From: a virus
Direction: 5' to 3' (one strand)
DNA length: 64,000 nucleotides
IMG/VR virus record: IMGVR_UViG_3300048672_000430
Coordinates: 18,108 to 82,107 of that record
Made by a program: the position numbers and the translations under genes
Notes under the pieces: model-generated
What the model was told of the DNA's origin: nothing
Databases searched by the model: none
What the model saw: only the letters and a program-made list of their open reading frames with translations
In this document: piece after piece, positions 596-64,000 of the stretch
Layout of the letters: each line of letters opens with the position of its first letter
Position numbering within the stretch: position 1 is the first letter of the stretch

Positions 596-2059
596 TTATT
601 TACGTTTATTTACACCAAAGATGCTTTCATAGACTGCTATCGTTGCAGTTTTAGCGTTACTAGAATACCCAAATCCACCATTATTATAAAATGTTGAATC
701 AGAAGGTCTATTATAGTTATTGGGATAAGGATTCTTCGTATAGTTAATTGATTTAACCATATATAATAAAGCATCTACAGCATCATAATGACCGTTTCCT
801 GGTGATCTAGCAAAGTCATCCTTTACAGAACTATCTTTCCATCTTGCGTTTTTTAAATGCTGTCTTAATACTACACACTTTGGATTAATTATTATTTTTT
901 CGCTTTGCAACATTACTCTAGTTTGATTAATTAAAGGTAACTTATAACCAGGAGCTTTCTTTACCGCTTGAAAGTTTAAACGCTTATTTGAAGCTCTATT
1001 GATTTCATTAATAACAATATACTCAACATCAGATACTCTGATTTCGGGCACAATTAATTCGTTAGTTAAAATGTTCATCCAGAGCTGCTCTTCTTTTTGT
1101 AGAATTTCTTCACTAAACTTATCTAGTTTTAAATCTTTACCTTCTTTAACTATTTCATCTTCTATTATAACCTTATCTTGTTTAAAATCATAATACCCAA
1201 ATAATACTACAGTTAGATCTTTAAACCCTAAATCCATAGAAACATACGGAGTATAAAAAGGAGGTTTATTATATTCTCTTACGATCTTTGCTTCTAGTTC
1301 TTCATCAAATTCTGGAATTACCGATCTGTTTTCATCTCTAATTAATTCACACAGATACTCTCTTCTAAAATTGATATTATTAACTCCACCAACAAACTTT
1401 GATATTATGTGATTTTTCTTTTCATCAGATAATAACGGGTTGTCAAACAATGTTTTCTTCGTTAAGAAATTTTCTTGTTCAGCAACTTCAATGAACTCTA
1501 TAAATTCATGATCTGCCTCTTCAGGAGGAGTAGATGCTAAAATAATCTTACCACCTGTATGTGTTGTTGTGGGAAAAAGAATAGACATAACATTATACTT
1601 TAGATTATTACAGAAAGCGGCCTCATCTACTAAGATTAAACTAGACTTTTGTCCCCTTAACCTTTCAGCGTTATTAGCGTCTGTACCAGCCATTTGAATC
1701 TGTGATCCATTAGGAAACTGATAAATAAATTTAGACGGGATATACTCCGGTCTAACGTCTTCAGGACAGTCTTCTAGTATCTCTCTGAACAACGGTTCAA
1801 ATATAGTTTGAACGTGTAGTTTAGTGTCTGTTAAAAGCTTTACTATTGAATTAGGATTTTGTATAGCGTGCATTAATCCGATGATAGCTAGTAAATATGA
1901 TTTACCAGATTGTCTTGCAAGTAACCAAACTAAAGTTGACTGAGGTTGAGCATTTAAGTATATGTTAAACATCTCTTTTTGTACGGTGTGCATCTTGTGG
2001 GTCAAGATACCTCTACGCCAAAGTTCATCCTCAATTTGTTTCTTACTAATAGTAGCCAT
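596..2059 (-). CDS. terL: Terminase large subunit
   Basis: Walker A-like LLARQSGKS, LRG motif, Walker B LILVDEAAF, coupling motif ASTP, nuclease SMDLG and HYDAVDAL. Confidence 0.93.
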   Translation of the reverse strand: MATISKKQIEDELWRRGILTHKMHTVQKEMFNIYLNAQPQSTLVWLLARQSGKSYLLAIIGLMHAIQNPNSIVKLLTDTKLHVQTIFEPLFREILEDCPEDVRPEYIPSKFIYQFPNGSQIQMAGTDANNAERLRGQKSSLILVDEAAFCNNLKYNVMSILFPTTTHTGGKIILASTPPEEADHEFIEFIEVAEQENFLTKKTLFDNPLLSDEKKNHIISKFVGGVNNINFRREYLCELIRDENRSVIPEFDEELEAKIVREYNKPPFYTPYVSMDLGFKDLTVVLFGYYDFKQDKVIIEDEIVKEGKDLKLDKFSEEILQKEEQLWMNILTNELIVPEIRVSDVEYIVINEINRASNKRLNFQAVKKAPGYKLPLINQTRVMLQSEKIIINPKCVVLRQHLKNARWKDSSVKDDFARSPGNGHYDAVDALLYMVKSINYTKNPYPNNYNRPSDSTFYNNGGFGYSSNAKTATIAVYESIFGVNKRK

Positions 2060-2991: not shown

Positions 2992-3390
2992 TCACGGGTT
3001 AAATACTCGGATATCGGTCTTTAAATTATAACTAGCCATAGGAACAATTTGAACATGAACCCAATTTGTTGTTCCCTTTTCCATCCAAAGATTATACTTT
3101 TTAAGCATAGCACAATCATTTGCTATTAACCAATTGTAAAGCTCTAACTTCGGATCACTGATATCAGCAGCCTGTCCAAAAAGATGTTTCGACATTCTAG
3201 GATACTTCTTACTCTTATATATTCTTTCCATATCGGCATCATTTCTTAAACCTGAAGTTATTGTCATAGGTTTACCCCAAGCTACCCTAACTTTGTTTAA
3301 ACGATCCAATAATATAGTGAGATTAACAGTTTGTTCATCCGTACATTCAGATTGACTATGAGCCCCTAATAGTTCTTTCATCGAAATCAT
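2992..3390 (-). CDS. Peptidase M15 family endolysin
   Basis: ITSGLR, SKHLFGQAADI (SxHxxGxAxD), WVHV. Confidence 0.85.
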   Translation of the reverse strand: MISMKELLGAHSQSECTDEQTVNLTILLDRLNKVRVAWGKPMTITSGLRNDADMERIYKSKKYPRMSKHLFGQAADISDPKLELYNWLIANDCAMLKKYNLWMEKGTTNWVHVQIVPMASYNLKTDIRVFNP

Positions 3391-3992: not shown

Positions 3993-4484
3993 CTATTTCC
4001 GTTTCTTCACCCACTCCATCGTTCTATCGTTCAGAGCATATACCGGCTGCACTAGATCCACTCCAACATAATACTGAGCAACAAAACCCTTAGCTTCATC
4101 CATGTTCTCAAAAACCCCAACAACGGTCTTATCCTTTCTAATATTCTCAATTACAACAAACACAGCAGGTATACTACAATTCACTAGGATCTTGGGTTTA
4201 TATTTTGAATAGCTAATTTTAGCCTTAACAACATCAAACCCGGCAGTAACATACTTCTCAACATAATACTGAGAGTAAATTTGTTTATATAACAACTCTT
4301 CTGTTTTTAATAAAATTTTTATATAAGATCGATCGCCCACTAATTCTGGAAAATCATCCAAAATTTGACCTATACGAGATTTTAGGTTATTTGCATATCC
4401 AACGTAGCATTTACTAGAAACAGGGTTAATAATGGCAAATACGCAACTATTAGGTAGACTATGGAGAGTATTGATGAAATTCAT
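3993..4484 (-). CDS. Degenerate GIY-YIG-like domain protein
   Basis: CVFAIINPVSSKCYVGYANNLKSRI resembles GIY...YIG...LxxR. Confidence 0.55.
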   Translation of the reverse strand: MNFINTLHSLPNSCVFAIINPVSSKCYVGYANNLKSRIGQILDDFPELVGDRSYIKILLKTEELLYKQIYSQYYVEKYVTAGFDVVKAKISYSKYKPKILVNCSIPAVFVVIENIRKDKTVVGVFENMDEAKGFVAQYYVGVDLVQPVYALNDRTMEWVKKRK

Positions 4485-4530: not shown

Positions 4531-4542
4531 TATAGTTGTTCA
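4531..4542 (-). promoter_or_regulatory. Late promoter motif variant TGAACAACTATA
   Basis: One mismatch; upstream of the first leftward gene. Confidence 0.5.
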
Positions 4543-4664
4543 GTATTAGTGATTTCGATGAGGTGAGTAAAATAGGTGTGGTCGAGAATAGGTGTTTATA
4601 TACTTGAATTAGGTGGTATCACGGATGAGCTAACAAAGCCTTTCGTCCCGTCGGAAAGCCCATA

Positions 4665-4684
4665 GGGGGTAGGTAGGTGGGGGG
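4665..4684. other. G-rich tract, candidate genome terminus or packaging signal
   Basis: GGGGGTAGGTAGGTGGGGGG in an otherwise AT-rich genome, at the late/early divergence. Confidence 0.35.
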
Positions 4685-4727
4685 TGTTTGATATGCCAAA
4701 CTTTTGTATGATGTTGCGAACTTAAGA

Positions 4728-4943
4728 TGGCACGGATCTTGCAGGGATATGCAAGTATCATGCCGGCACGGTAATTGCTATATATGCAAGAAGTATGCCA
4801 AGTGCTAAGTGTCCAATATTGTAGGAGTTCTGGGGTAAGTGGTTGATATGTGATGAAATTATTTGGTATTGATGTTGCTATATATGCAAGGGGCATGCCG
4901 AGGTTTACCCGGTTGAGGGCAATTTTTTGGCATCGATTTTGCA
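4728..4943. promoter_or_regulatory. Array of seven sigma54 (-24/-12)-type sites in alternating orientation
   Basis: +4728 TGGCACGGATCTTGCA; -4750..4765 CGGCATGATACTTGCA; +4764 CGGCACGGTAATTGCT; -4785..4800 TGGCATACTTCTTGCA; +4864 TGGTATTGATGTTGCT; -4885..4900 CGGCATGCCCCTTGCA; +4928 TGGCATCGATTTTGCA. All are GG-N10-GC. Confidence 0.8.
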
Positions 4944-5099
4944 ATTAGACCTGCATCATTATATGCCCCAAAACCAGGAATTTTATTTTTATCCTTATAT
5001 ACAACGAAAATCTGTCATGCCTGAAAAATTTTTTTAGCGTCTTAACTCTATGTTATCGTTGGTGAATTTCAGATTTTTTAAATTATTTTTGAAGATCGC

Positions 5100-5128
5100 T
5101 TGCAATTATTTTTTAGATCGGTTAAGAT
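5100..5128 (+). promoter_or_regulatory. Early sigma70-type promoter TTGCAA-17-TAAGAT
   Basis: Correct spacing, A/T tracts upstream, followed by hairpin GGCAAGC/GCTTGTC. Confidence 0.6.
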
Positions 5129-5286
5129 TGTTTCAAGGCAAGCAACTAAGCTTGTCGGTAACGAGAGGTTAGAACATGGTAGCGGTGGTTGTAGTGATTT
5201 TTGTTTCATACTTTTTATTAGAAGTTGTTGGAATATAAAAAAAAGCTATAGGTTCCCGTTGTGGATAGTTTTTCAATATGTACTTA

Positions 5287-5298
5287 CATAGTTGTTAA
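5287..5298 (-). promoter_or_regulatory. Late promoter motif copy TTAACAACTATG pointing into the control region
   Basis: 11 of 12 match to the motif; no adjacent leftward gene. Confidence 0.45.
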
Positions 5299-5578: not shown

Positions 5579-5639
5579 AAGTAAGTAAAGCAACTGAGAT
5601 CGGTCACAAGTCCGACTGAAAAATGCTGAGTGATTATTT
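5579..5639 (+). ncRNA. Twister ribozyme (type P1), copy 1; predicted cleavage U5586/A5587
   Basis: P1 AAGUAA/UUAUUU, U^AA, P2 GCA/UGC, T2 AC/GU, P4 UCGG/CCGA with loop U-CAC-AA-GU, GA, T1 CAC/GUG. Confidence 0.85.
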
Positions 5640-9143: not shown

Positions 9144-9274
9144 AAAGGTTTATAACAGAACACCACGATTTTTTAGTTGTGTTGTTAATTATGGGATTAT
9201 TCGCAAAAGCCCTGTTATTAATTTTTAATATATTAGGATCATATACTATAAATGAATACTTTATGAGGTAAATT

Positions 9275-9565
9275 ATGCACGCATTTGTAGAAGACATACT
9301 ACAATTCACTTTAAACAATAAGAAGCATCAACATTTTCAAGAAAAGGAAACAAGATATTCATTCGTTATATGTAATAGGAATATATATGCTCACGATAGT
9401 AGTGTGACATTACACAATGGTAAAACGGATATACATAGGAATTTTGATAGATTTAATGTGATTAAATCACCTCATAGATTACAGCCTATTTTTTTAAGTC
9501 GAGAAACTATGAGAGATTCTTATAAAAATAGACCATTTAGTGATTTGGTAAAAATAGTGGAGTAG
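9275..9565 (+). CDS. Small protein, Q-YxF family
   Basis: DILQF...RYSFVI...LVKIVE; GAGGT RBS. Confidence 0.6.
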   Translation: MHAFVEDILQFTLNNKKHQHFQEKETRYSFVICNRNIYAHDSSVTLHNGKTDIHRNFDRFNVIKSPHRLQPIFLSRETMRDSYKNRPFSDLVKIVE

Positions 9566-9568
9566 TAA

Positions 9569-9745
9569 ATGGAAAAAATAAAACATATTTATTCAAAAGA
9601 ATTAGGTCAATTATTTATGAGAATGACCGACGAAGAATATTTCGATTGGTTGAAAACAAACGAAGTAGAATATACTAAACCATTATTGGAATTAATAAAT
9701 GAAGATAAGGCTAATCTAAGTGATGAAGATTATACAGATACATAG
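9569..9745 (+). CDS. Acidic 58-aa hypothetical protein
   Basis: GGAG RBS; hand translation. Confidence 0.55.
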   Translation: MEKIKHIYSKELGQLFMRMTDEEYFDWLKTNEVEYTKPLLELINEDKANLSDEDYTDT

Positions 9746-9754
9746 GGGAACATC

Positions 9755-9919
9755 ATGATAATAATACAATGCGATAACGATTTATGTGAAGCCGGAAATG
9801 AATGGTCTGAACATATTAATTATCGATTTAGTAATGATTATATAGATTACGATGATTTCTTAAATAATGTTTCAAATGAAGAAGAATATAGAATAATATG
9901 GGAGGATACAAATGATTAA
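9755..9919 (+). CDS. Small protein, Q-YxF family (54 aa)
   Basis: MIIIQC...NYRFSN...YRIIWED; hand translation. Confidence 0.6.
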   Translation: MIIIQCDNDLCEAGNEWSEHINYRFSNDYIDYDDFLNNVSNEEEYRIIWEDTND

Positions 9920-11312
9920 TGTTGGATCAATAATAAAAATTAATGATGAACTTTGTCCAGAAAATGAACGCTCTAATAAAAGATTTCAATTCGGTGCTTT
10001 AAATTATATCGCAATTATGTTGGATTGGGAGTTTGAGGTAGTACGAGAATTTAAAGATGAGTTTCATGGTGACATGGTAGAATGTAAAATTACCAATAGT
10101 GATAATATCAAGTCAAACATTGTTCTTAGAACACAAGATACAGTGTTAGCTAAGTCAAATAAATTCAATTTAACTTATGAGATTATCGGTAAAACAGGAA
10201 GGTTTGATGCTGAGATAAGAGAACTCAAGAGAGAAGAAAATGATCTACTCTTAGTTCGTGCGGAAGAAAAAAGAAAAGGCACACCGATCACTGATAAAAC
10301 ACTTATTCAAAATTGGTCAGAAGTTAAATCAGTTAGAAATAAGATCAAGCGTTATCAAGAAAATACTGATAAAGTTTTTGTTGTCAAACATTCGTCTGGT
10401 ACTTACGAGATTGATTGTGCTGAGGAACAAATTCCAACAAAGCTTAGATCTTTAATTAGAAGTATGCGTGCTGATAGACGCAAAGTTTACCCTGTCACAA
10501 AAGAAATTGGTGGCGGTATGACATTAGAGAAATTAGGTAATGTCATGGTTAAACCTGGTAAGTTCCTGGAATTAAATGAGAAGTATGCTTTGAATATTAT
10601 TAAGGCACATAAGAAACCTACAACAAACGATAACTATGTTGGTATTGAAATTGAGATGTTATCACCTAAAAGTATTGAAGAAATGAATAAAGAGTTTATT
10701 AAGTCAAGATTACATAAGTATGTGAATGTTGGTACAGATGGTTCAATTAGAAGTGACATTAGTGGTGTTCATGCTATGGAATTGAGGGTATGTTTACCTG
10801 AAAACTTATTAGCTACTCATTTAAAAATGATTACAGAAGTATTACGTAAAACAGACTCTTATGCAAATCGTTCATGTGGTATGCACGTTCACGTTGATAT
10901 GAGAAATCGTGACCCTGAGCTATGTTACAGAAACTTCTTTAAAGTTCAAAATATTATGCTACAAGCTCAACCATTAACTAGACGTACAAACCAATACTGC
11001 AAACCTAGTACGATAGCTAGCAAAAAATTAAAAGACTTCTCAAGTAATGGTGATGATAACGTGAGACGACAAGCAATTAATACTGACTCGTATCATAAAA
11101 ACGATATGAAGACTATTGAGATCAGAGTACACGAAGGTGCTACTAAGTTCAAAGATATATTTAATTGGGTAAATTTCTTAGTTGCGACCGCTTCCCTTAA
11201 AAAAGATTTGGACGCACCTATTAATACTATTAAAGAATTAAGATCTGCTAATTTCGTAAATGAATTAGTAATTAATCATTTAAATGAACGTATTGAAGAG
11301 TATTCGGCTTAA
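9912..11312 (+). CDS. Putative amidoligase (Amidoligase_2 family) with N-terminal extension
   Basis: YVGIEIE, TDGSI, MELR, SCGMHVHVD, YCK, TIEIR. Confidence 0.85.
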   Translation: MINVGSIIKINDELCPENERSNKRFQFGALNYIAIMLDWEFEVVREFKDEFHGDMVECKITNSDNIKSNIVLRTQDTVLAKSNKFNLTYEIIGKTGRFDAEIRELKREENDLLLVRAEEKRKGTPITDKTLIQNWSEVKSVRNKIKRYQENTDKVFVVKHSSGTYEIDCAEEQIPTKLRSLIRSMRADRRKVYPVTKEIGGGMTLEKLGNVMVKPGKFLELNEKYALNIIKAHKKPTTNDNYVGIEIEMLSPKSIEEMNKEFIKSRLHKYVNVGTDGSIRSDISGVHAMELRVCLPENLLATHLKMITEVLRKTDSYANRSCGMHVHVDMRNRDPELCYRNFFKVQNIMLQAQPLTRRTNQYCKPSTIASKKLKDFSSNGDDNVRRQAINTDSYHKNDMKTIEIRVHEGATKFKDIFNWVNFLVATASLKKDLDAPINTIKELRSANFVNELVINHLNERIEEYSA

Positions 11313-11340
11313 TTATAATAAAACTAATATGAGGTAAAAA

Positions 11341-12558
11341 ATGTGTAAAGTTATGGTAATGACCGGGATAGAAAATAATGATCTAGCCCTGAGATTTATG
11401 AAAGCAGTAGCACCCAACATGTCAGTAGGTAATACCGACGGCATTGGGTACTCCGCAGTAAATTCTAAGAATCAACTGTTCATGGAAAAATGGCACGTTA
11501 ATAATAAGTTCTTAAATACGAACGATGTTGTAGACGCTAAGACTATTGAGGAATTAAAACCTTATGAGAATAGGATAGGTAAACTCCAATTAAATTACAC
11601 AAGTTATGGTGATGTAACAAGAGACGATCTTAGATCAGTGACTATGCACACCAGGTACGCAACATGTGGAAAAACATTTGAGAATACTCACCCATTTATT
11701 GAAAATGATATATCCCTTATTCATAATGGTGTTATTCAAAATTCTTTTACATTAGCATTAAATAAAAATTCAACTTGTGACTCCGAAAACGCTTTACAAT
11801 TATACAATAACTTACAAGTTAATTTGAGTAAGAAAAGTACAGACTATCAAAGTTTCCTAGATAAGTTAAAGGGTTATTGGGCATTTGCTTTTCTTGCAAA
11901 AGATTCTGAAGGTACATATCAACTAGATGTTGTTCGTGAGGGTGCACCATTATACTTTGCAAAGATTGAAGAAATCGGAGTTAATTGTGTTGTGTTTGCA
12001 ACAACAAAAGAAATCATCGAGATAGGTTGTAAAGAATTAGAGTTACCAGTTAGATCACAGATCTATCTACTAACTGAGTCTAACTATCACAGATTTAACG
12101 CATTAACAGGCGAGTTAATACTTAATAAACAACTCGAAGATTCTTTATTAAATGCTTCATCGTATAGCTATTCAAAAGTATTTAAATCAAATAAGACAAA
12201 GAAAAAAGAACCTTATCAACCACTAAATAATAACAACATAGATGAATACTATGACTACTACAATAGTCAAGAAAATTACAAGGATCTTACATCAGTAACC
12301 GATGAGTTCTTATTAGATTCGTTCTATGATATTAATGAGCCTTTAGTTGATAGACTTGATTCTTATGATAAAATGTTCGACACTGAGTATTTATCTAACT
12401 TTGAAGATCTAGCTATTAAAATCCGTGACTTCATAACAAAACAAGAATATAAAGAAGTTATTAGTTTTGCCGAAATTATCTTAATGTTAGACGCTTATAT
12501 TGCAAGTGAAAATATATCAGACCTTTATAAAGTATTTAGAAATAAACGTAGGGCTTAA
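11341..12558 (+). CDS. Class II (Ntn) glutamine amidotransferase
   Basis: Cys2 nucleophile, DGIG, HTRYATCG, NTHPF, HNGVI, DSE. Confidence 0.88.
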   Translation: MCKVMVMTGIENNDLALRFMKAVAPNMSVGNTDGIGYSAVNSKNQLFMEKWHVNNKFLNTNDVVDAKTIEELKPYENRIGKLQLNYTSYGDVTRDDLRSVTMHTRYATCGKTFENTHPFIENDISLIHNGVIQNSFTLALNKNSTCDSENALQLYNNLQVNLSKKSTDYQSFLDKLKGYWAFAFLAKDSEGTYQLDVVREGAPLYFAKIEEIGVNCVVFATTKEIIEIGCKELELPVRSQIYLLTESNYHRFNALTGELILNKQLEDSLLNASSYSYSKVFKSNKTKKKEPYQPLNNNNIDEYYDYYNSQENYKDLTSVTDEFLLDSFYDINEPLVDRLDSYDKMFDTEYLSNFEDLAIKIRDFITKQEYKEVISFAEIILMLDAYIASENISDLYKVFRNKRRA

Positions 12559-12561
12559 TTT

Positions 12562-12702
12562 ATGGACATAATACAATACAAATCAAGATACTATTGGTTT
12601 AGATTTAGAGAAAATCGCATTAACTTTTATTACTCTTCGGAAACCTTAATAGAAAGCGGAGGTAATGACCTTCCTTATTGTGTAATTAAAAACCTGGATT
12701 AA
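12562..12702 (+). CDS. Small protein, Q-YxF family (46 aa)
   Basis: MDIIQYKSRYYWFRFRENRINFYYSSETLIESGGNDLPYCVIKNLD. Confidence 0.7.
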   Translation: MDIIQYKSRYYWFRFRENRINFYYSSETLIESGGNDLPYCVIKNLD

Positions 12703-12715
12703 TTTGGAGGTATAA

Positions 12716-12874
12716 ATGTATGACGTAGAATTGATACAGTATACTGAAAAAAGAACATTTTATTTTAGATTTCGTATTGATAATGTAAACTTTTATTGGA
12801 ATAAAAACTTTTCATCGATTATTAAATCCGGTGGAAATTACATTCCTCATAACATAATTAAAATAATAGATTAA
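12716..12874 (+). CDS. Small protein, Q-YxF family (52 aa), close paralog of 12562
   Basis: MYDVELIQYTEKRTFYFRFRIDNVNFYWNKNFSSIIKSGGNYIPHNIIKIID; GGAGGT RBS. Confidence 0.75.
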   Translation: MYDVELIQYTEKRTFYFRFRIDNVNFYWNKNFSSIIKSGGNYIPHNIIKIID

Positions 12875-12885
12875 CGGGAGAAGTT

Positions 12886-13044
12886 ATGTTGCTCACTCAA
12901 TATAATAAATTTATCAGTCCGTCTCTTAGATATATTTTTCGACTATCTTCAGATGGTTATATATATAACAATAATGGAAGATTACATGGATCGACTATCC
13001 CTGATGATGATAAACTATATCAAATAATAATGGAGAGAATATGA
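12886..13044 (+). CDS. Small protein, Q-YxF family (52 aa)
   Basis: MLLTQY...RYIFRL...YQIIMERI; GGAG RBS; ATGA overlap with the next gene. Confidence 0.65.
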   Translation: MLLTQYNKFISPSLRYIFRLSSDGYIYNNNGRLHGSTIPDDDKLYQIIMERI

Positions 13045-13796
13045 AATTCACAATACTATATAGTGGTCGTTCTTCTAAAACAGGAAGGGATTTATTAAAT
13101 AAATTCAAGCCTTTATCTAGAAAGGCATTTAGAAAACGAACAGAAAAACGATTCAATACTGATGTTATTTTAAGATGGGGGTCAACTGAGACTTTCAATA
13201 AGTTAAGAGGTAGGCTAGAACTAAACACTTTAGAAGCTGTCAGAAATGCAAGCAATAAGTTAATCATGATGCAAAAATTAGTTGAGGCTAATATTCCAAC
13301 CGCAGAAATTCTTTTCAATCCTTATAATCAATCTCAAGATGTTATAGACAATTATCGTGATGATAATGGTGGATTTTTTATCAGAGGTTCAAACGATTCA
13401 ATAAGATATGACGATAGTATTAATCCTAATGACAAGTATATATCTAAACCAATTGTAAATAAGCGTAGAGAATATAGAGTCCACGTATTCAATGGTGAAG
13501 TTATAGCTATCTATGAGAAAATTCCTAACGATGAGAATGTTAAGTTATTCAAATCATATAACTGTCATTTCGAATTAAAGAATATAGAAAATTGTAGGCT
13601 AACCGAACAAGATAAACAAGTTTGTATAGATGCTGTAAATAAATTAGGATTACTATTTGGTGGTGTAGATTTAATGCGAGATAAGAATAAGAAAGTCTTT
13701 GTTTCGGAAGTAAATAGTGCCCCGGCTTTAAATGGAACTAACATAGATAGATATGTAACCAAAATAAACGAGTACATTCAAGCGATGGGAGTTTAA
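13041..13796 (+). CDS. ATP-grasp ligase (RimK-like, phiEco32 type)
   Basis: ILRWGS, ASNKL, REYRVHVFNGEVI, LGLLFGGVDL, EVNSAPAL. Confidence 0.88.
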   Translation: MKFTILYSGRSSKTGRDLLNKFKPLSRKAFRKRTEKRFNTDVILRWGSTETFNKLRGRLELNTLEAVRNASNKLIMMQKLVEANIPTAEILFNPYNQSQDVIDNYRDDNGGFFIRGSNDSIRYDDSINPNDKYISKPIVNKRREYRVHVFNGEVIAIYEKIPNDENVKLFKSYNCHFELKNIENCRLTEQDKQVCIDAVNKLGLLFGGVDLMRDKNKKVFVSEVNSAPALNGTNIDRYVTKINEYIQAMGV

Positions 13797-16232: not shown

Positions 16233-16518
16233 ACCAACGCCTAGATTTAAACGTTTTTTTATTGAACAGTGGGTAGAATTTTATGGATATCATTGTGCAT
16301 ACTGTACGGGATATTGTGAAAATGATAGAACAATAGATCACATTATACCAATAAGTAAAGGTGGTAGAAACCAATTTATAAACATGGTCTTAGCTTGTCG
16401 TAAGTGTAATGAAGAGAAAGCAAACAAAATGCCAGAAGAGTTTAGAACACTAATGTTACAACCAATACAAAACAAACACAAAAGGAAAGAAAATCATGAC
16501 GAAAAAAGAGTTGGATGA
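16216..16518 (+). CDS. HNH endonuclease
   Basis: CAYC...TIDHIIPISKGG.N...NMVLACRKCNEEK. Confidence 0.85.
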   Translation: MKIVCKPTPRFKRFFIEQWVEFYGYHCAYCTGYCENDRTIDHIIPISKGGRNQFINMVLACRKCNEEKANKMPEEFRTLMLQPIQNKHKRKENHDEKRVG

Positions 16519-23973: not shown

Positions 23974-24435
23974 ATGACCCAACCATTAACTAAGTATTAT
24001 CTGATATTTTTAATGTTACTATTAACACACAATGCTCCTAGTATTGAGTTGGCATCGAGACCTTACTTTGACCGATATATTGAACTGTCTAAAAAATGTG
24101 GATTAAATCTAAACACCGCAGAAATTAGAATTGAATACATGGACACTAAAATTAAATACCAAGTTGCTACTTGTAATTCATCTCAACAAATAATACGATT
24201 AGATAGAAGATCTTTTCGAGGAGATGATATTCGTAGAGAACAAATTCTATTTCATGAACTAACGCATTGTTTAATGTCACAAGGACACAATGATATTGAC
24301 TTGAATATAATGAACACAAGTGGATTCATTGATAACCTAGATTATGTTAACAACTACGATATGTATATTAGAAAGATGTTTAAAGTTTGTAATTATAAAG
24401 AACAAATAAAATATGAGGGATACGATGGGAATTAG
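23974..24435 (+). CDS. Secreted zincin-like metallopeptidase
   Basis: Signal or TM segment; FHELTHCLMSQGH followed by Met-turn NIMN. Confidence 0.7.
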   Translation: MTQPLTKYYLIFLMLLLTHNAPSIELASRPYFDRYIELSKKCGLNLNTAEIRIEYMDTKIKYQVATCNSSQQIIRLDRRSFRGDDIRREQILFHELTHCLMSQGHNDIDLNIMNTSGFIDNLDYVNNYDMYIRKMFKVCNYKEQIKYEGYDGN

Positions 24436-25528
24436 ATTAAGTCACTCAGCCAGTACTAAATACACAGATTGTCCAAAATCGTATCAGTATCATTACATTG
24501 AAAAGTTTAGGGCTGAAGTGCAATCCTCGGCCCTTCTCTTTGGTACTGCTATAGATAAATCAGCCGAACATTATGCACTCACTAAAAACTTCGACGAAAC
24601 TATTGAAGTATTTGAAAAGACTTGGCAAACTCAAAATATTAATGGAGTAGACGAGGACTTAAGATTTCTTTTAAACTTCACATATTCAGATAAAGATTTA
24701 GACACAGATCTACTTAAAAAAGATGACTGGAATATACTATCAGAACATTTTCATATCACATCTGATAACATAGAAGAAGCATTAAAAGAAGTTATTTATA
24801 CTAAAGCATCTACTGGATATGCGTATCTAAATAATCAAGATAAATCTATTTTTAACTATGCTAACTGGCTTTGCTTAAAACGTAAAGGTAAGTTGATGCT
24901 TAGAGAATTTAAAAACATATTCGATGGGAATGTTGAGCAAGTATTAGGATCACAAGTTAAGGTTGATTTAGAAAACGAATCTGGTGATTCTGTTGTTGGA
25001 TTTATTGACTTTGTTGTTAAATGGAAAGGTATTGATAAACCAATTATTATTGACTTAAAAACAGCAGGTAGAGAATATGATGAGGACGCTGTTAAGAAAT
25101 CACCTCAATTGTCACTATATGTTTACGCTGTATCTGAAAAATACGAGGGAACTAGAGAGTGTGGGTTCATAGTATTAAATAAGAACATCAATAAGAACAA
25201 GCATAAAAAATGTAAAGAGTGTGGACATGATGGTACAGGAGGTAGACATAAGACCTGCGACAATACTATTGAAGGTGTTCGATGTAATGGAGAATGGAAG
25301 GAAACTATATACCCTAAAGCGAAATCACAAATACTAATAAGTTCAGTATCTGAAGTCTTGGTGGAAAGAGTTGTTGAGAACTTTAATGAAGTTAACAAAG
25401 CAATCAAGGCTGAAGTGTTTCCGAGAAACCTAAGCAATTGTATAAAGTATGGTTCGATTAAGTGTTCATTTTACGATATTTGTCATTCAAATAGTGAAGC
25501 TGGATTAATCAAAAAAGAAGACGCTTGA
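24425..25528 (+). CDS. PD-(D/E)XK Cas4/RecB-like exonuclease
   Basis: LSHS...CPKSY, GFIDFV, IIDLKT, QLSLY, terminal Cys cluster; extra Zn-ribbon insert. Confidence 0.85.
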   Translation: MGIRLSHSASTKYTDCPKSYQYHYIEKFRAEVQSSALLFGTAIDKSAEHYALTKNFDETIEVFEKTWQTQNINGVDEDLRFLLNFTYSDKDLDTDLLKKDDWNILSEHFHITSDNIEEALKEVIYTKASTGYAYLNNQDKSIFNYANWLCLKRKGKLMLREFKNIFDGNVEQVLGSQVKVDLENESGDSVVGFIDFVVKWKGIDKPIIIDLKTAGREYDEDAVKKSPQLSLYVYAVSEKYEGTRECGFIVLNKNINKNKHKKCKECGHDGTGGRHKTCDNTIEGVRCNGEWKETIYPKAKSQILISSVSEVLVERVVENFNEVNKAIKAEVFPRNLSNCIKYGSIKCSFYDICHSNSEAGLIKKEDA

Positions 25529-62200: not shown

Positions 62201-63998
62201 TAGAAGCATTTGCTTTGTTTATGTTTCCTAATGTAGTGTCGGATAGGGTCATATACGTAACAGAAGGCTCTATTGCTATCTGGAAATCTCCCTGCGAGCT
62301 AGACCCCACTAGACATAAACTAGGGATTATAGAAGTCCCTGCTGAAGTAGCTCCGGTAGGTAAGCTAATTCTAGCTTCCGTAGCTGTAGTTGTTCCGGCT
62401 ACAAATTTACCTCTAATCTCGTAGTTTTCTCCTACTTGTCTGTATTCAAATTCTACTCCTGTTGGTGTTCCGAAACCTGTAAAAGTTGGTGTATAGCTAG
62501 TCCAGTTTGTAGCGTTAAAAGTTGTCTGACTCAAACTATATGAGGTAGTAGCAATTGAAGCTTGTTCAATTAAAATATTATCTACAACTGTTTGACAGTT
62601 TGTTTCAGTTAAATAATCAATTCTATACCCTAAAGTTGTTGATAAATATGGTACAGAAAATGAATATTCAAACCTCTTAATACCACCTGCTACTCTAAGT
62701 GTAACACCAGAAGCTGTTGCTGTAGCTGGTTGATTTATAGTAATAGAACCAGTAGTTGGAGATAATGCAGTTACTGCGGCACCAGAAGGGATTCCTGCTC
62801 CACTAATTAAAGAACCTAATGTTATAGAATTAACAGTTGATGCAGAAAGACCACTTATTGTATTAGATAAATTCGTTGTGTTAGCGGTAATTGCTACACT
62901 TCCTGTAGGTATTTGTTGAGTTGTTGTAATATCACCGGCTTGATTCACTAATTTTATTGTGACATTTCCAGTTGTTGATGTAGACATTACATCTAAACTA
63001 ATTTTTAATACTTTATTTCTAAATTTTACAGGTAAATCAAATTCATTCACTAAATATTTAGCAGAACTATGTGTAACATAAGCTACTCTTTTATTAATTC
63101 CTGCAACACCTAATGTATTTGTAAAACTTACACCACTATTATTATATACGATATTTGTATTTTCAAAGTTGTCTTCATGAACTATACCATATCCACTATC
63201 TTCTAGAGCTGTTACTTTTCCAGTTAAATCGGTTAATTGTGTTGTATGTCCAGATACATCTGTTTGTAGTGTAGATATATCAGTACTTAAAACTCCTGTA
63301 TATCCGCTTAATGTATTTAATTCAGTAGTTGTTATTGCTGAAGAAGTTAATGTTCCTGAACCATCTGTTACAGCTACGATGTTAGGGTTTAATGTAGGTA
63401 AAGAACCGCCTCCACTTCCTGAACCACCAACTACTTGCCATCTAGCTGTAGTTGAATCATAACTTAACGTTAAAGCAGAATCAGCAGCCATTGTAATATC
63501 GGCCCCAGTTCCTGTAAGTATTCTTGTATTAGCAGATCCTACTAAAGCATCATTTTTAATTGAAACAGAGGCACCTGTTCTATTAAATATTGTTACTTGT
63601 TGCCCATTACTTCCAGTTGGTATGTTAGATATACTAACTAAAGAACCATTGGTTAAACGTATACCACCAGCACTAAATGCTGTAATAGCAGCATTAGAAC
63701 CAGTTACAGTAGAATCATCAATAGATTGTAATTCAATGTGTTTTAAATTTGTTAATGTTAAAGCAGAGTCAGAATTACTGATATTATTAGCTTCAGATAT
63801 TACACCACTACCGTTATTTACAACAATAGCATTAGCTGTACCTGATGCTAATTTTGTTCTATCAATATTAGCCGCTGCTTTAATGTCAGCATTTTCGATA
63901 TTTGTAATAGTATTCGAGTCTGCGTCGAGTGTTTTATTTGTTAATGTTTGAACAGATTGATTACCCACTAAAGTTGTTGTAGAGTCTGGTAAGGTAAT
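59271..63998 (-). CDS. Long tail fibre / receptor-binding protein (5' end outside the window)
   Basis: Thr/Ser/Gly-rich beta repeats, QTLTNKTL; the frame stays open upstream of 63968 (ITLPDSTTTLVG) to the window edge. Confidence 0.8.
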   Translation of the reverse strand: MTLPDSTTTLVGNQSVQTLTNKTLDADSNTITNIENADIKAAANIDRTKLASGTANAIVVNNGSGVISEANNISNSDSALTLTNLKHIELQSIDDSTVTGSNAAITAFSAGGIRLTNGSLVSISNIPTGSNGQQVTIFNRTGASVSIKNDALVGSANTRILTGTGADITMAADSALTLSYDSTTARWQVVGGSGSGGGSLPTLNPNIVAVTDGSGTLTSSAITTTELNTLSGYTGVLSTDISTLQTDVSGHTTQLTDLTGKVTALEDSGYGIVHEDNFENTNIVYNNSGVSFTNTLGVAGINKRVAYVTHSSAKYLVNEFDLPVKFRNKVLKISLDVMSTSTTGNVTIKLVNQAGDITTTQQIPTGSVAITANTTNLSNTISGLSASTVNSITLGSLISGAGIPSGAAVTALSPTTGSITINQPATATASGVTLRVAGGIKRFEYSFSVPYLSTTLGYRIDYLTETNCQTVVDNILIEQASIATTSYSLSQTTFNATNWTSYTPTFTGFGTPTGVEFEYRQVGENYEIRGKFVAGTTTATEARISLPTGATSAGTSIIPSLCLVGSSSQGDFQIAIEPSVTYMTLSDTTLGNINKANASTVVLTGNTVSFFASVPVSGLTASTTTTTTIPLTTAQLVQQSDSQATLQGYAGLGSTRTHIPYFTNIRPIVGTALRITNDSVNGLEVTALEDGYYNINLSGSSDISVNTYFGIGKNLTDFTTAISGRTTDATVLKSLLSSQTASTRDGWEMSWSGPLNAGDKVYPMADASIGSGTLGFFYFTVSKAGSLKQLNTSSDAKITIPTHSLRFEGASTRGSTDTAIVKFDTQAITQGDAWTVTNTAANGTVVTMKKAGKLNIYSNLKAPAGNPTIAITLNQTTLTAFPSNAEVKAMSTLVSSSFGSVSTSIDVVVGDIIRIVMDAVPATDSRNCLQLSLTETSIPANFSNVLPQWSQSDSCIQLRTANGYGSTNTKIRRFSNTVQNLGSDVGYFDDASLGAYFVINSDGIYSMTYTEVFNAASHFGITLNDTQGTTGLSSTTAANILAQAITSAANQTDSISAELYLPKGSVIRCHTEGDPSGTNGTLEAKFTISKIGKPNLTSVDVTPFVNMKTTDFDYLSFKALGSTMTDITAGEFRWAVGSISTTNKGIISIQDDSANTRTKFVAMKDCQLNISFTATLNTAGNVISIFKNGSSLINGNSANVGGQFSVVNGSLALNSGDFITISSGSALGSTDNVTLSIVATADNNATASPTQNVSSDTMSFVFKSTAITTSDPIGTFNTYTYAANTNTATIATTAPTQTTSSMNTNGIQVFGRAANTTSTAASPARVDIFIGTGLKSKQVDAYSALAKTSPINYDRGQINSTSDFGTLTYYNETTGILTIEAATYNLATTVNRTVGVDFNGATPTSGYFVFNASKSPSLVTIPNLVQRVAIIKDVKASGTNGGSAVGTTWTARDLNTIDDPTGIVTSLAGNSITLPAGQYYVESTSPFERVGATKTRLFSTTSSTTLLTSDSVFVLTTGDTNAKSIISGYINLTSAQTIQLQYFVSSAFATYGLGEGNSGAGVSDIFSQVKITKIK

Positions 63999-64000
63999 TG

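Follow-up and report, generated by a model that had tools for sequence, protein, structure and literature searches.

A dense two-way array of sigma-54-type elements at the hub between the genome arms of an uncultured freshwater phage

The DNA analysed here belongs to an uncultured phage from a freshwater metagenome. The record comprises 82,107 bp with a GC content of 33%, and the window, i.e. the whole stretch of 64,000 nucleotides under analysis, makes up its larger part. The genome is organised around a gene-free hub of ~835 bp, which separates a leftward late arm on the minus strand, carrying lysis, terminase and virion genes, from a rightward early/replication arm on the plus strand that encodes a COOH-NH2 ligase, an amidoligase, a glutamine amidotransferase, a ribonucleotide reductase, a DnaB-type helicase and a family-B DNA polymerase. 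The sign of the GC skew switches at the hub, where the gene strand switches too. A dense array of short elements sits within the hub, bordered by a G-rich block on its left and an AT-rich stretch on its right, and the landmarks of the region are the following (window coordinates):

596-2059, minus strand: terminase large subunit (TerL), left arm
2992-3390, minus strand: endolysin, left arm
3993-4484, minus strand: first gene of the left arm, weak GIY-YIG match
4531-4542, minus strand: copy of TTAACAACTATA with one mismatch, upstream of the GIY-YIG gene; presumed late promoter
4659-4685, unstranded: G-rich block to the left of the array, including runs of G5 and G6
4728-4943, both strands: array of seven elements
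5100-5128, plus strand: candidate sigma-70-like early promoter, TTGCAA-N17-TAAGAT, found by eye and under the threshold of the promoter scan
5176-5238, plus strand: 20-codon, very hydrophobic ORF, first of the right arm, found by eye
5287-5298, minus strand: second copy of TTAACAACTATA, right of the hub and pointing left across it

TTAACAACTATA is the phage's own repeated motif, with 10 matches in the window against 1.88 expected. The two leftward copies listed above flank the hub, and the right-hand one would drive transcription across the early promoter, the small ORF and the entire array. The candidate early promoter has sigma-70-like counterparts, also recognised by eye, at the same place in the related contigs L010 and L011 (TTGCAT-N17-TATTCT and TAATCT), and the 20-codon hydrophobic ORF is kept in L010, L011 and L273 with a differing sequence. 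A 104-aa ORF on the minus strand that spans the array (4630-4944) was rejected as a gene; it is without a conserved counterpart in eight relatives, and its best tblastn E-value of 0.04 is due to the repeated motif itself. The array was also rejected as an RNA element: Rfam covariance models gave no matches at E<=1 within 4728-4943, and a long hairpin between the two halves of a pair is impossible because their N5 stretches are not complementary. Outside the array the Rfam matches amount to a T-box at chance level and a twister-P1 ribozyme match at 5582-5636 (38.2 bits against a gathering score of 67.2; E 2.5e-06), and no tRNA genes were found in the window.

Similarity searches place the phage far from cultured relatives. 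Megablast of the hub against cultured phages returned no matches, and the terminase finds distant relatives only, namely Vibrio phages, which we take to be T5-like, with identities of at most 24.6%; from relatives this remote no packaging type can be inferred. A candidate host-like gene at 24413-25528 matched a phage PD-(D/E)XK nuclease instead and gives no clue to the host. In the probable source run, a Logan contig of 4,053 bp that covers 9240-13300 has a depth of 21.9, versus 44.1 in the 77.9-kb remainder, and this half depth suggests two strain variants of the ligase/micro-protein region. None of the sequencing runs listed for this DNA is an RNA run.

The array itself consists of seven exact matches to YGGYAY-N5-TTGCW within 216 bp, which confirms the seven sigma-54-type elements on alternating strands that a preliminary description had recognised from the sequence. 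The 64-kb window holds eight matches in total, whereas 100 dinucleotide-preserving shuffles averaged 0.30 (sd 0.54) and never exceeded 2. The complete 82,107-bp record contains the same eight matches, and the reversed pattern used as a control has none. The individual sites are:

Site 1, 4728-4743, plus strand: TGGCACGGATCTTGCA, facing the early/replication arm; agrees with TGGCACG-N4-TTGCA at 12 of 12 specified positions
Site 2, 4750-4765, minus strand: facing the late arm; face-to-face with site 1 across a 6-bp spacer
Site 3, 4764-4779, plus strand: back-to-back with site 2, overlapping it by 2 bp (GCCGGC)
Site 4, 4785-4800, minus strand: face-to-face with site 3 across the 5-bp spacer ATATA
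Site 5, 4864-4879, plus strand: GGTAT variant; together with site 6 it repeats the 3/4 pair 100 bp further right
Site 6, 4885-4900, minus strand: face-to-face with site 5
Site 7, 4928-4943, plus strand: facing the early arm
Decayed partner of site 7, 4952-4967, minus strand: GG-N11-GC, with N6 for N5 and ATGCA for TTGCA; off-pattern, found by eye
Outlying eighth match, 16419-16434, minus strand: exact YGGYAY-N5-TTGCW, far from the array

Four of the seven sites point toward the early arm and three toward the late arm, and the face-to-face spacers measure 6, 5 and 5 bp. Other details of the preliminary description hold as well: pairs 3/4 and 5/6 have TTGCTATATATGCAAG in common and are exactly 100 bp apart, the starts of sites 1 and 7 are 200 bp apart, and sites 2 and 3 do overlap back-to-back at GCCGGC. 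The phasing of 100 and 200 bp that had been read into these distances is present in the window but is not conserved in relatives; the two pairs form a 28-nt direct repeat of 86% identity, so that their 100-bp spacing reflects a local duplication. Given the variable spacers and the non-complementary inner N5 stretches of facing sites, the 16-mer, and not a palindrome, is the predicted unit.

Nine related contigs cover the hub, with TerL identities to the window of 36-91% and a GC content of 33-44% across the lineage. Eight of them carry a cluster (L010, L011, L055, L209, L216, L236, L256 and L265), and the ninth, L273, is cut near its contig start and retains one site. The terminase search had yielded six related contigs (L009, L010, L011, L012, L013 and L014); L209, L216, L236, L256 and L265 came from the scan for tandem pairs described below (terminase identity 50-57%) and L055 from the scan for face-to-face pairs (36% terminase identity). 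L010 and L011 have five and four sites, respectively, at a distance upstream of the terminase as in the window, and L209, L216, L236, L256, L265 and L055 have between three and seven or more sites at the hub, adjoining a stretch of 8-10 C. All lineage relatives that reach that far have a homopolymer G or C run next to the array; L009 ends inside its G run just short of the array, L012 and L013 end before reaching the hub, and L014 (41% identity) has one site, located elsewhere. The hub cluster holds nearly all of a genome's sites: seven of eight in this phage, five of six in genome G001 and seven of 10 in genome G002. Across the lineage, the 16-bp element, its N10 and the clustering at this one position are preserved, and the GG-N10-GC spacing is constant in every site of the nine contigs. 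Variable are the number of sites, their orientation, the 100-bp phasing and the spacing between sites, with facing-site spacers of 5 bp in L010 and 2 bp in L011 and L055 compared with 6/5/5 bp in the window. The window and each of the nine contigs have one or more sites facing the early arm:

Window: 4 facing the early arm, 3 facing the terminase
L010: 2 facing the early arm, 3 facing the terminase
L011: 1 facing the early arm, 3 facing the terminase
L209: 2 facing the early arm, 1 facing the terminase
L216: 4 facing the early arm, 2 facing the terminase
L236: 5 facing the early arm, 1 facing the terminase
L265: 3 facing the early arm, 0 facing the terminase
L256: 4 facing the early arm, 2 facing the terminase
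L055: 3 facing the early arm, 4 facing the terminase
L273 (cut by the contig start): 1 facing the early arm, 0 facing the terminase

Five of the relatives have, in addition, a separate single sigma-54-type site (TGGCAYGR-N3-YWGCA) ~250-300 bp to the right of the array (L216:1-800, L236:3400-4160, L256:6300-7100, L209:2700-3330 and L265:7500-8160). In L216, L236 and L256 it is preceded by three or four CTGTTAA repeats and a short palindrome, and together the repeats and the single site resemble a classical promoter with its enhancer, placed at the start of the right arm. The additional site is followed in the relatives by a GC-rich non-coding leader.

The arrangement extends well beyond this lineage. 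Face-to-face pairs conforming to TGGCAY-N5-TTGCW-N(1-8)-WGCAA-N5-RTGCCA occur in at least 120 IMG/VR stretches. A collection of bacterial and archaeal genomes totalling 596 Gb contains 58 such stretches, for which our own arithmetic with equal base frequencies gives a chance expectation of ~4 matches; several of the 58 lie on short contigs from MAGs, and one is on a contig that also appears among the viral loci. Same-strand tandem pairs were found in 64 viral stretches and back-to-back pairs in 47, the latter under a pattern four-fold stricter than that for the other two geometries; facing pairs are the most frequent geometry, in scans of unequal strictness that yield no true ratio. The viral matches listed range in GC content from 30 to 66%, many of them have two to four pairs at periods of 43-67 bp, and the spacer between facing sites runs from 1 to 8 bp over 170 pairs, which is the full span that the pattern allows. 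The letters of the element recur in phages whose terminases are only 22-26% identical to that of the window. Dense clusters of predicted sigma-54-type sites in every relative orientation are a trait of phages.

The genomic surroundings of these pairs are diverse. Among the matches listed, no protein cluster is common to all neighbourhoods; the largest is the terminase, present at 38 of 120 loci, and facing pairs lie upstream of it in 40 out of 40 nearby terminase ORFs. A family of 131-aa ORFs is likewise preceded by facing pairs at a distance of 213-896 bp (31 of 31, among the matches listed). Rough ORF calls for the matches listed place the arrays in 29 divergent, 29 tandem and 13 convergent gaps, with 27 inside ORFs of >=90 aa and 27 at locus edges, 125 arrays in all, and put 34 of the 64 tandem pairs inside ORFs of that size; many of these ORFs are probably spurious, and the counts are to be taken as rough. 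Where the tandem pairs of the 64 contigs are intergenic, they face the downstream gene 19 times and oppose it seven times. Proximity of the arrays to contig ends was considered and dropped as a general feature, since a hand count puts ~18 of ~125 within 500 bp, which, with many short contigs in the set, was not judged to differ from chance. One 36,563-bp viral contig (L084 and L100) starts inside an array of facing pairs and ends 416 bp past a three-pair array, the last pair of which is similar, not identical, to the starting pair.

One of the viral pair loci belongs to a cultured phage, Pseudomonas phage vB_PaeM_C2-10_Ab02, which has 12 sites against none for the control pattern. Its annotated terminal repeat of 1,165 bp (1-1165 and 92,684-93,848) has four sites in each copy, two of the four inside ORF02, and a facing pair lies at 80,961-80,992 in the 622-bp gap between ORF142 and ORF143. 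Sites also exceed the control in PaP1 (nine versus none), SYP (11 versus one), PAK_P3 (six versus one) and KoPa-4 (five versus two), and they occupy the right genome end of PaP1 (90,673-91,633) and positions near both ends of SYP (54-853 and 106,876). The facing pair is conserved in Ab02, PaP1, EM, the P. putida phage KoPa-4 and the P. plecoglossicida phage SYP; most of its -24/-12 letters are invariant in these five Pseudomonas phages and both N5 spacers vary freely, although EM and KoPa-4 have a degenerate left -12 box. Directly behind the pair lies a C-rich non-coding block of ~70 nt (L116:10190-10300; Ab02 ~80,990-81,100), which is nearly invariant in the five phages from three host species, has a weak consensus fold and matches no Rfam family or tRNA. 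In the YuA record, three promoter-trap fragments in late genes carry the annotation '-24/-12 consensus, high activity', and the strict pattern finds no match in YuA. According to PMC5053324 and PMC10914365, YuA development depends on host sigma-54, and PMC5053324 calls the use of sigma-54 by phages rare and names YuA alone.

The composition of the elements speaks for a particular reader. The GG and GC doublets of the array lie exactly 10 nt apart within TGGCAC-N5-TTGCW, in seven exact matches. In 293 unique half-sites from other phages (among the matches listed) the N10 is kept, and positions that the search pattern left free follow the sigma-54 consensus: position 7 holds G (61%) or A (37%), 73% have a purine at position 8, and T occupies position 10 in 54% and position -1 in 59%. 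This half-site consensus agrees with the E. coli RpoN-holoenzyme motif TGGCACnnTTnTTGC, obtained by gSELEX and given in PMC8743547. The preliminary description had made its sigma-54 reading depend on conservation of the N10 spacing in relatives, and with the spacing constant in the nine contigs and the 293 half-sites the elements may indeed be classed as sigma-54-type. Letters, strict inner spacing, free spacers and recurrence across very different phages together argue for one conserved host reader; the sigma-54 holoenzyme is by far the best candidate, and we hold this identification to be probable. The host itself is likely to bear RpoN.

Sigma-54, alone among bacterial sigma factors, binds DNA tightly and does not initiate without an ATP-driven activator, an enhancer-binding AAA+ protein with sites ~80-150 bp upstream of the promoter, and the transcript starts ~12 nt downstream of the GC box. 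Neither the sigma-54 activator domain (PF00158) nor the sigma-54 DNA-binding domain (PF04552) was detected in this genome at E<=1, PF00158 was found in none of 28 other array-bearing phage records, and no enhancer-like repeats were seen in the window. Our tentative preference, held at somewhat less than even confidence, is that host sigma-54 polymerase docks at the hub and that the array serves as a promoter cluster that is gated by an activator and fires into both arms. The 216-bp stretch would then offer seven predicted binding sites for the host sigma-54 (RpoN) RNA polymerase holoenzyme, each 16-bp element being read singly. Judging from the footprints of closed complexes, facing sites would exclude one another, and neighbours that face each other or overlap back-to-back are probably not filled together; some three or four polymerases might be seated at a time as closed complexes facing both arms. 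Since the phage lacks an enhancer-binding ATPase of its own, opening would depend on that of the host, which perhaps acts from solution, and the many strong sites could compensate for the absence of a visible enhancer. In this manner the phage would gain a second transcription route, dependent on the state of the host, beside the sigma-70-like early promoter and the TTAACAACTATA late motif.

The promoter cluster is favoured because at least one site always faces the early arm, because relatives have a classical single site nearby, because tandem pairs tend to face genes and because the sites of YuA can fire without a phage factor; taken together, the early arm-facing sites, the extra single sites and the pairs upstream of terminase genes give the layout a promoter-like appearance. 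Other points speak against it. No activator gene was found in this genome or in any of the 28 records and no enhancer is seen in the window; orientation is free, with early arm/terminase counts from 1/3 to 5/1; sites overlap; both arms have other promoter candidates, which makes the sites not obviously needed; and bacteria, themselves users of sigma-54 promoters, hardly have such pairs. The enrichment of all three pair orientations in phages suits an orientation-blind binding platform just as well. Most of these points favour an alternative in which sigma-54 polymerase or free sigma-54 binds and stays closed. The array would then be either a decoy, drawing sigma-54 away from host promoters as the phage genomes increase in number, or a parked clamp or roadblock marking the hub. 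This would also fit the concentration of a genome's sites in a single dense cluster instead of their distribution in front of many operons, and a density of pairs per base that is probably far higher in viral than in bacterial DNA. We nevertheless regard such a docking array as rather unlikely: a decoy needs no fixed hub, yet the position is conserved, some relatives place a separate site in a classical promoter setting, and YuA provides phage sigma-54 sites that are able to fire. The sigma-54 sponge put forward in the preliminary description survives as one form of this alternative, but it is weakened by the relatives' single site in promoter position and by the overlap, which, from the footprints, would leave not all sites fillable and would waste, indeed halve, the capacity. 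On the broader scale, it is somewhat improbable that phages of many unrelated lineages use arrays of sigma-54 closed complexes as a structural or regulatory device instead of promoters, and we would give no more credence to the form of this device in which a polymerase clamp at the hub or terminal repeat holds or marks the entering or replicating DNA, or drains sigma-54.

Two further explanations dispense with a leading role for sigma-54 polymerase. The array could be a cis element for DNA transactions, such as an origin, a packaging site or a terminal-repeat landmark, with sigma-54 polymerase or transcription as an accessory. Its occurrence at a single locus per genome, at the switch of strand and GC skew between a homopolymer G/C run on the left and an AT-rich stretch on the right, is in keeping with such an element, as is the invariable position of the pairs upstream of the terminase gene among the matches listed. 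Against an origin speak the DnaA boxes, which occur at chance level (21 found versus 22 expected), and the cumulative skew of Ab02, which has no extremum at the pair; the skew switch of the window is, in addition, confounded with gene direction. A genome end, or the 'entering DNA end' that the array had been proposed to shield or ratchet, receives some support from three of 10 lineage contigs that end <=500 bp from the hub (L009, L055 and L273), and from the sites in the terminal repeat of Ab02 and those towards the genome ends of PaP1 (right) and SYP (both). Against it, the 77.9-kb Logan contig runs unbroken through the array, the two ends of the record share 190 identical bases, so that the assembly closes on itself away from the array, and contig ends near repeats or homopolymer runs can be assembly artefacts; overall, a cis element of this kind appears unlikely. 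The 190-bp overlap at the end of the record (window 63811-64000) lies inside a 1565-aa ORF, and IMG/VR classes the record as linear. More doubtful still is a different DNA-binding protein, of phage or host, with a specificity resembling that of sigma-54. The two boxes, TGGCA and TTGCA, are alike and 11 bp apart, as a binder of direct repeats would need, and the control hub of phi29 does use arrays of sites for a phage protein. But such a protein would have to meet the same letters in phages of such different GC content and with such divergent terminases, it finds no counterpart in a protein cluster common to all neighbourhoods, the flanking positions that were not imposed follow the sigma-54 consensus, and this genome encodes no sigma-54 DNA-binding domain.

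The known precedent for sigma-54 in phages consists of the single promoters of YuA; the present array is dense, points both ways and is conserved at a fixed place in a lineage. The literature searched contains no description of phage sigma-54 arrays or facing pairs. Mapped start sites of YuA and PAK_P3 are tabulated in PMC10914365 and could have a bearing on the firing of such sites. If the array is a promoter cluster, many phages would make early or late transcription dependent on a host activator and, through it, on host physiology; if it is not, the parked polymerase would serve something other than transcription, and a device of parked complexes would represent a new viral exploitation of a host transcription factor. 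Either outcome would be new phage biology, and the question is directly testable, as the cultured Pseudomonas phages Ab02, PaP1, EM, KoPa-4 and SYP keep a homologous pair.

On the promoter reading, YuA, whose sigma-54 promoters were reportedly described by Ceyssens and colleagues in the Journal of Bacteriology in 2008, resembles the present phage as a lytic phage that encodes no activator and uses host -24/-12 promoters, active in a promoter trap; it differs in that its three single sites are spread among late genes, all pointing the same way as those genes, and form no array, facing pairs or hub. The classical enhancer-dependent sigma-54 promoters of bacteria (glnAp2, pspA and nifH) share GG-N10-GC with the extended consensus, but each stands alone, served by an upstream enhancer and its cognate activator, whereas the window presents seven overlapping sites pointing both ways with no enhancer or activator gene seen. 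The clustered strong early promoters A1-A3 at the genome end of T7 likewise place several strong sites for the host polymerase in a short non-coding stretch that heads the early genes; these are, however, sigma-70 promoters, all tandem and free of any need for an activator. The E. coli titration locus datA, a cluster of DnaA boxes, offers a parallel as a tight group of sites that bind one host protein with high affinity and have no evident output, the sites in the window being predicted ones; titration is the feature of datA, while the sites in the window overlap one another. Finally, the bidirectional sigma-70 promoters with a symmetric -10 element, reportedly described by Warman and colleagues in 2021, are akin to the facing pairs in that two promoters on opposite strands overlap and have a melting region in common, but they depend on another sigma factor, and the phage pairs consist of two whole sites separated by a variable spacer of 1-8 bp.
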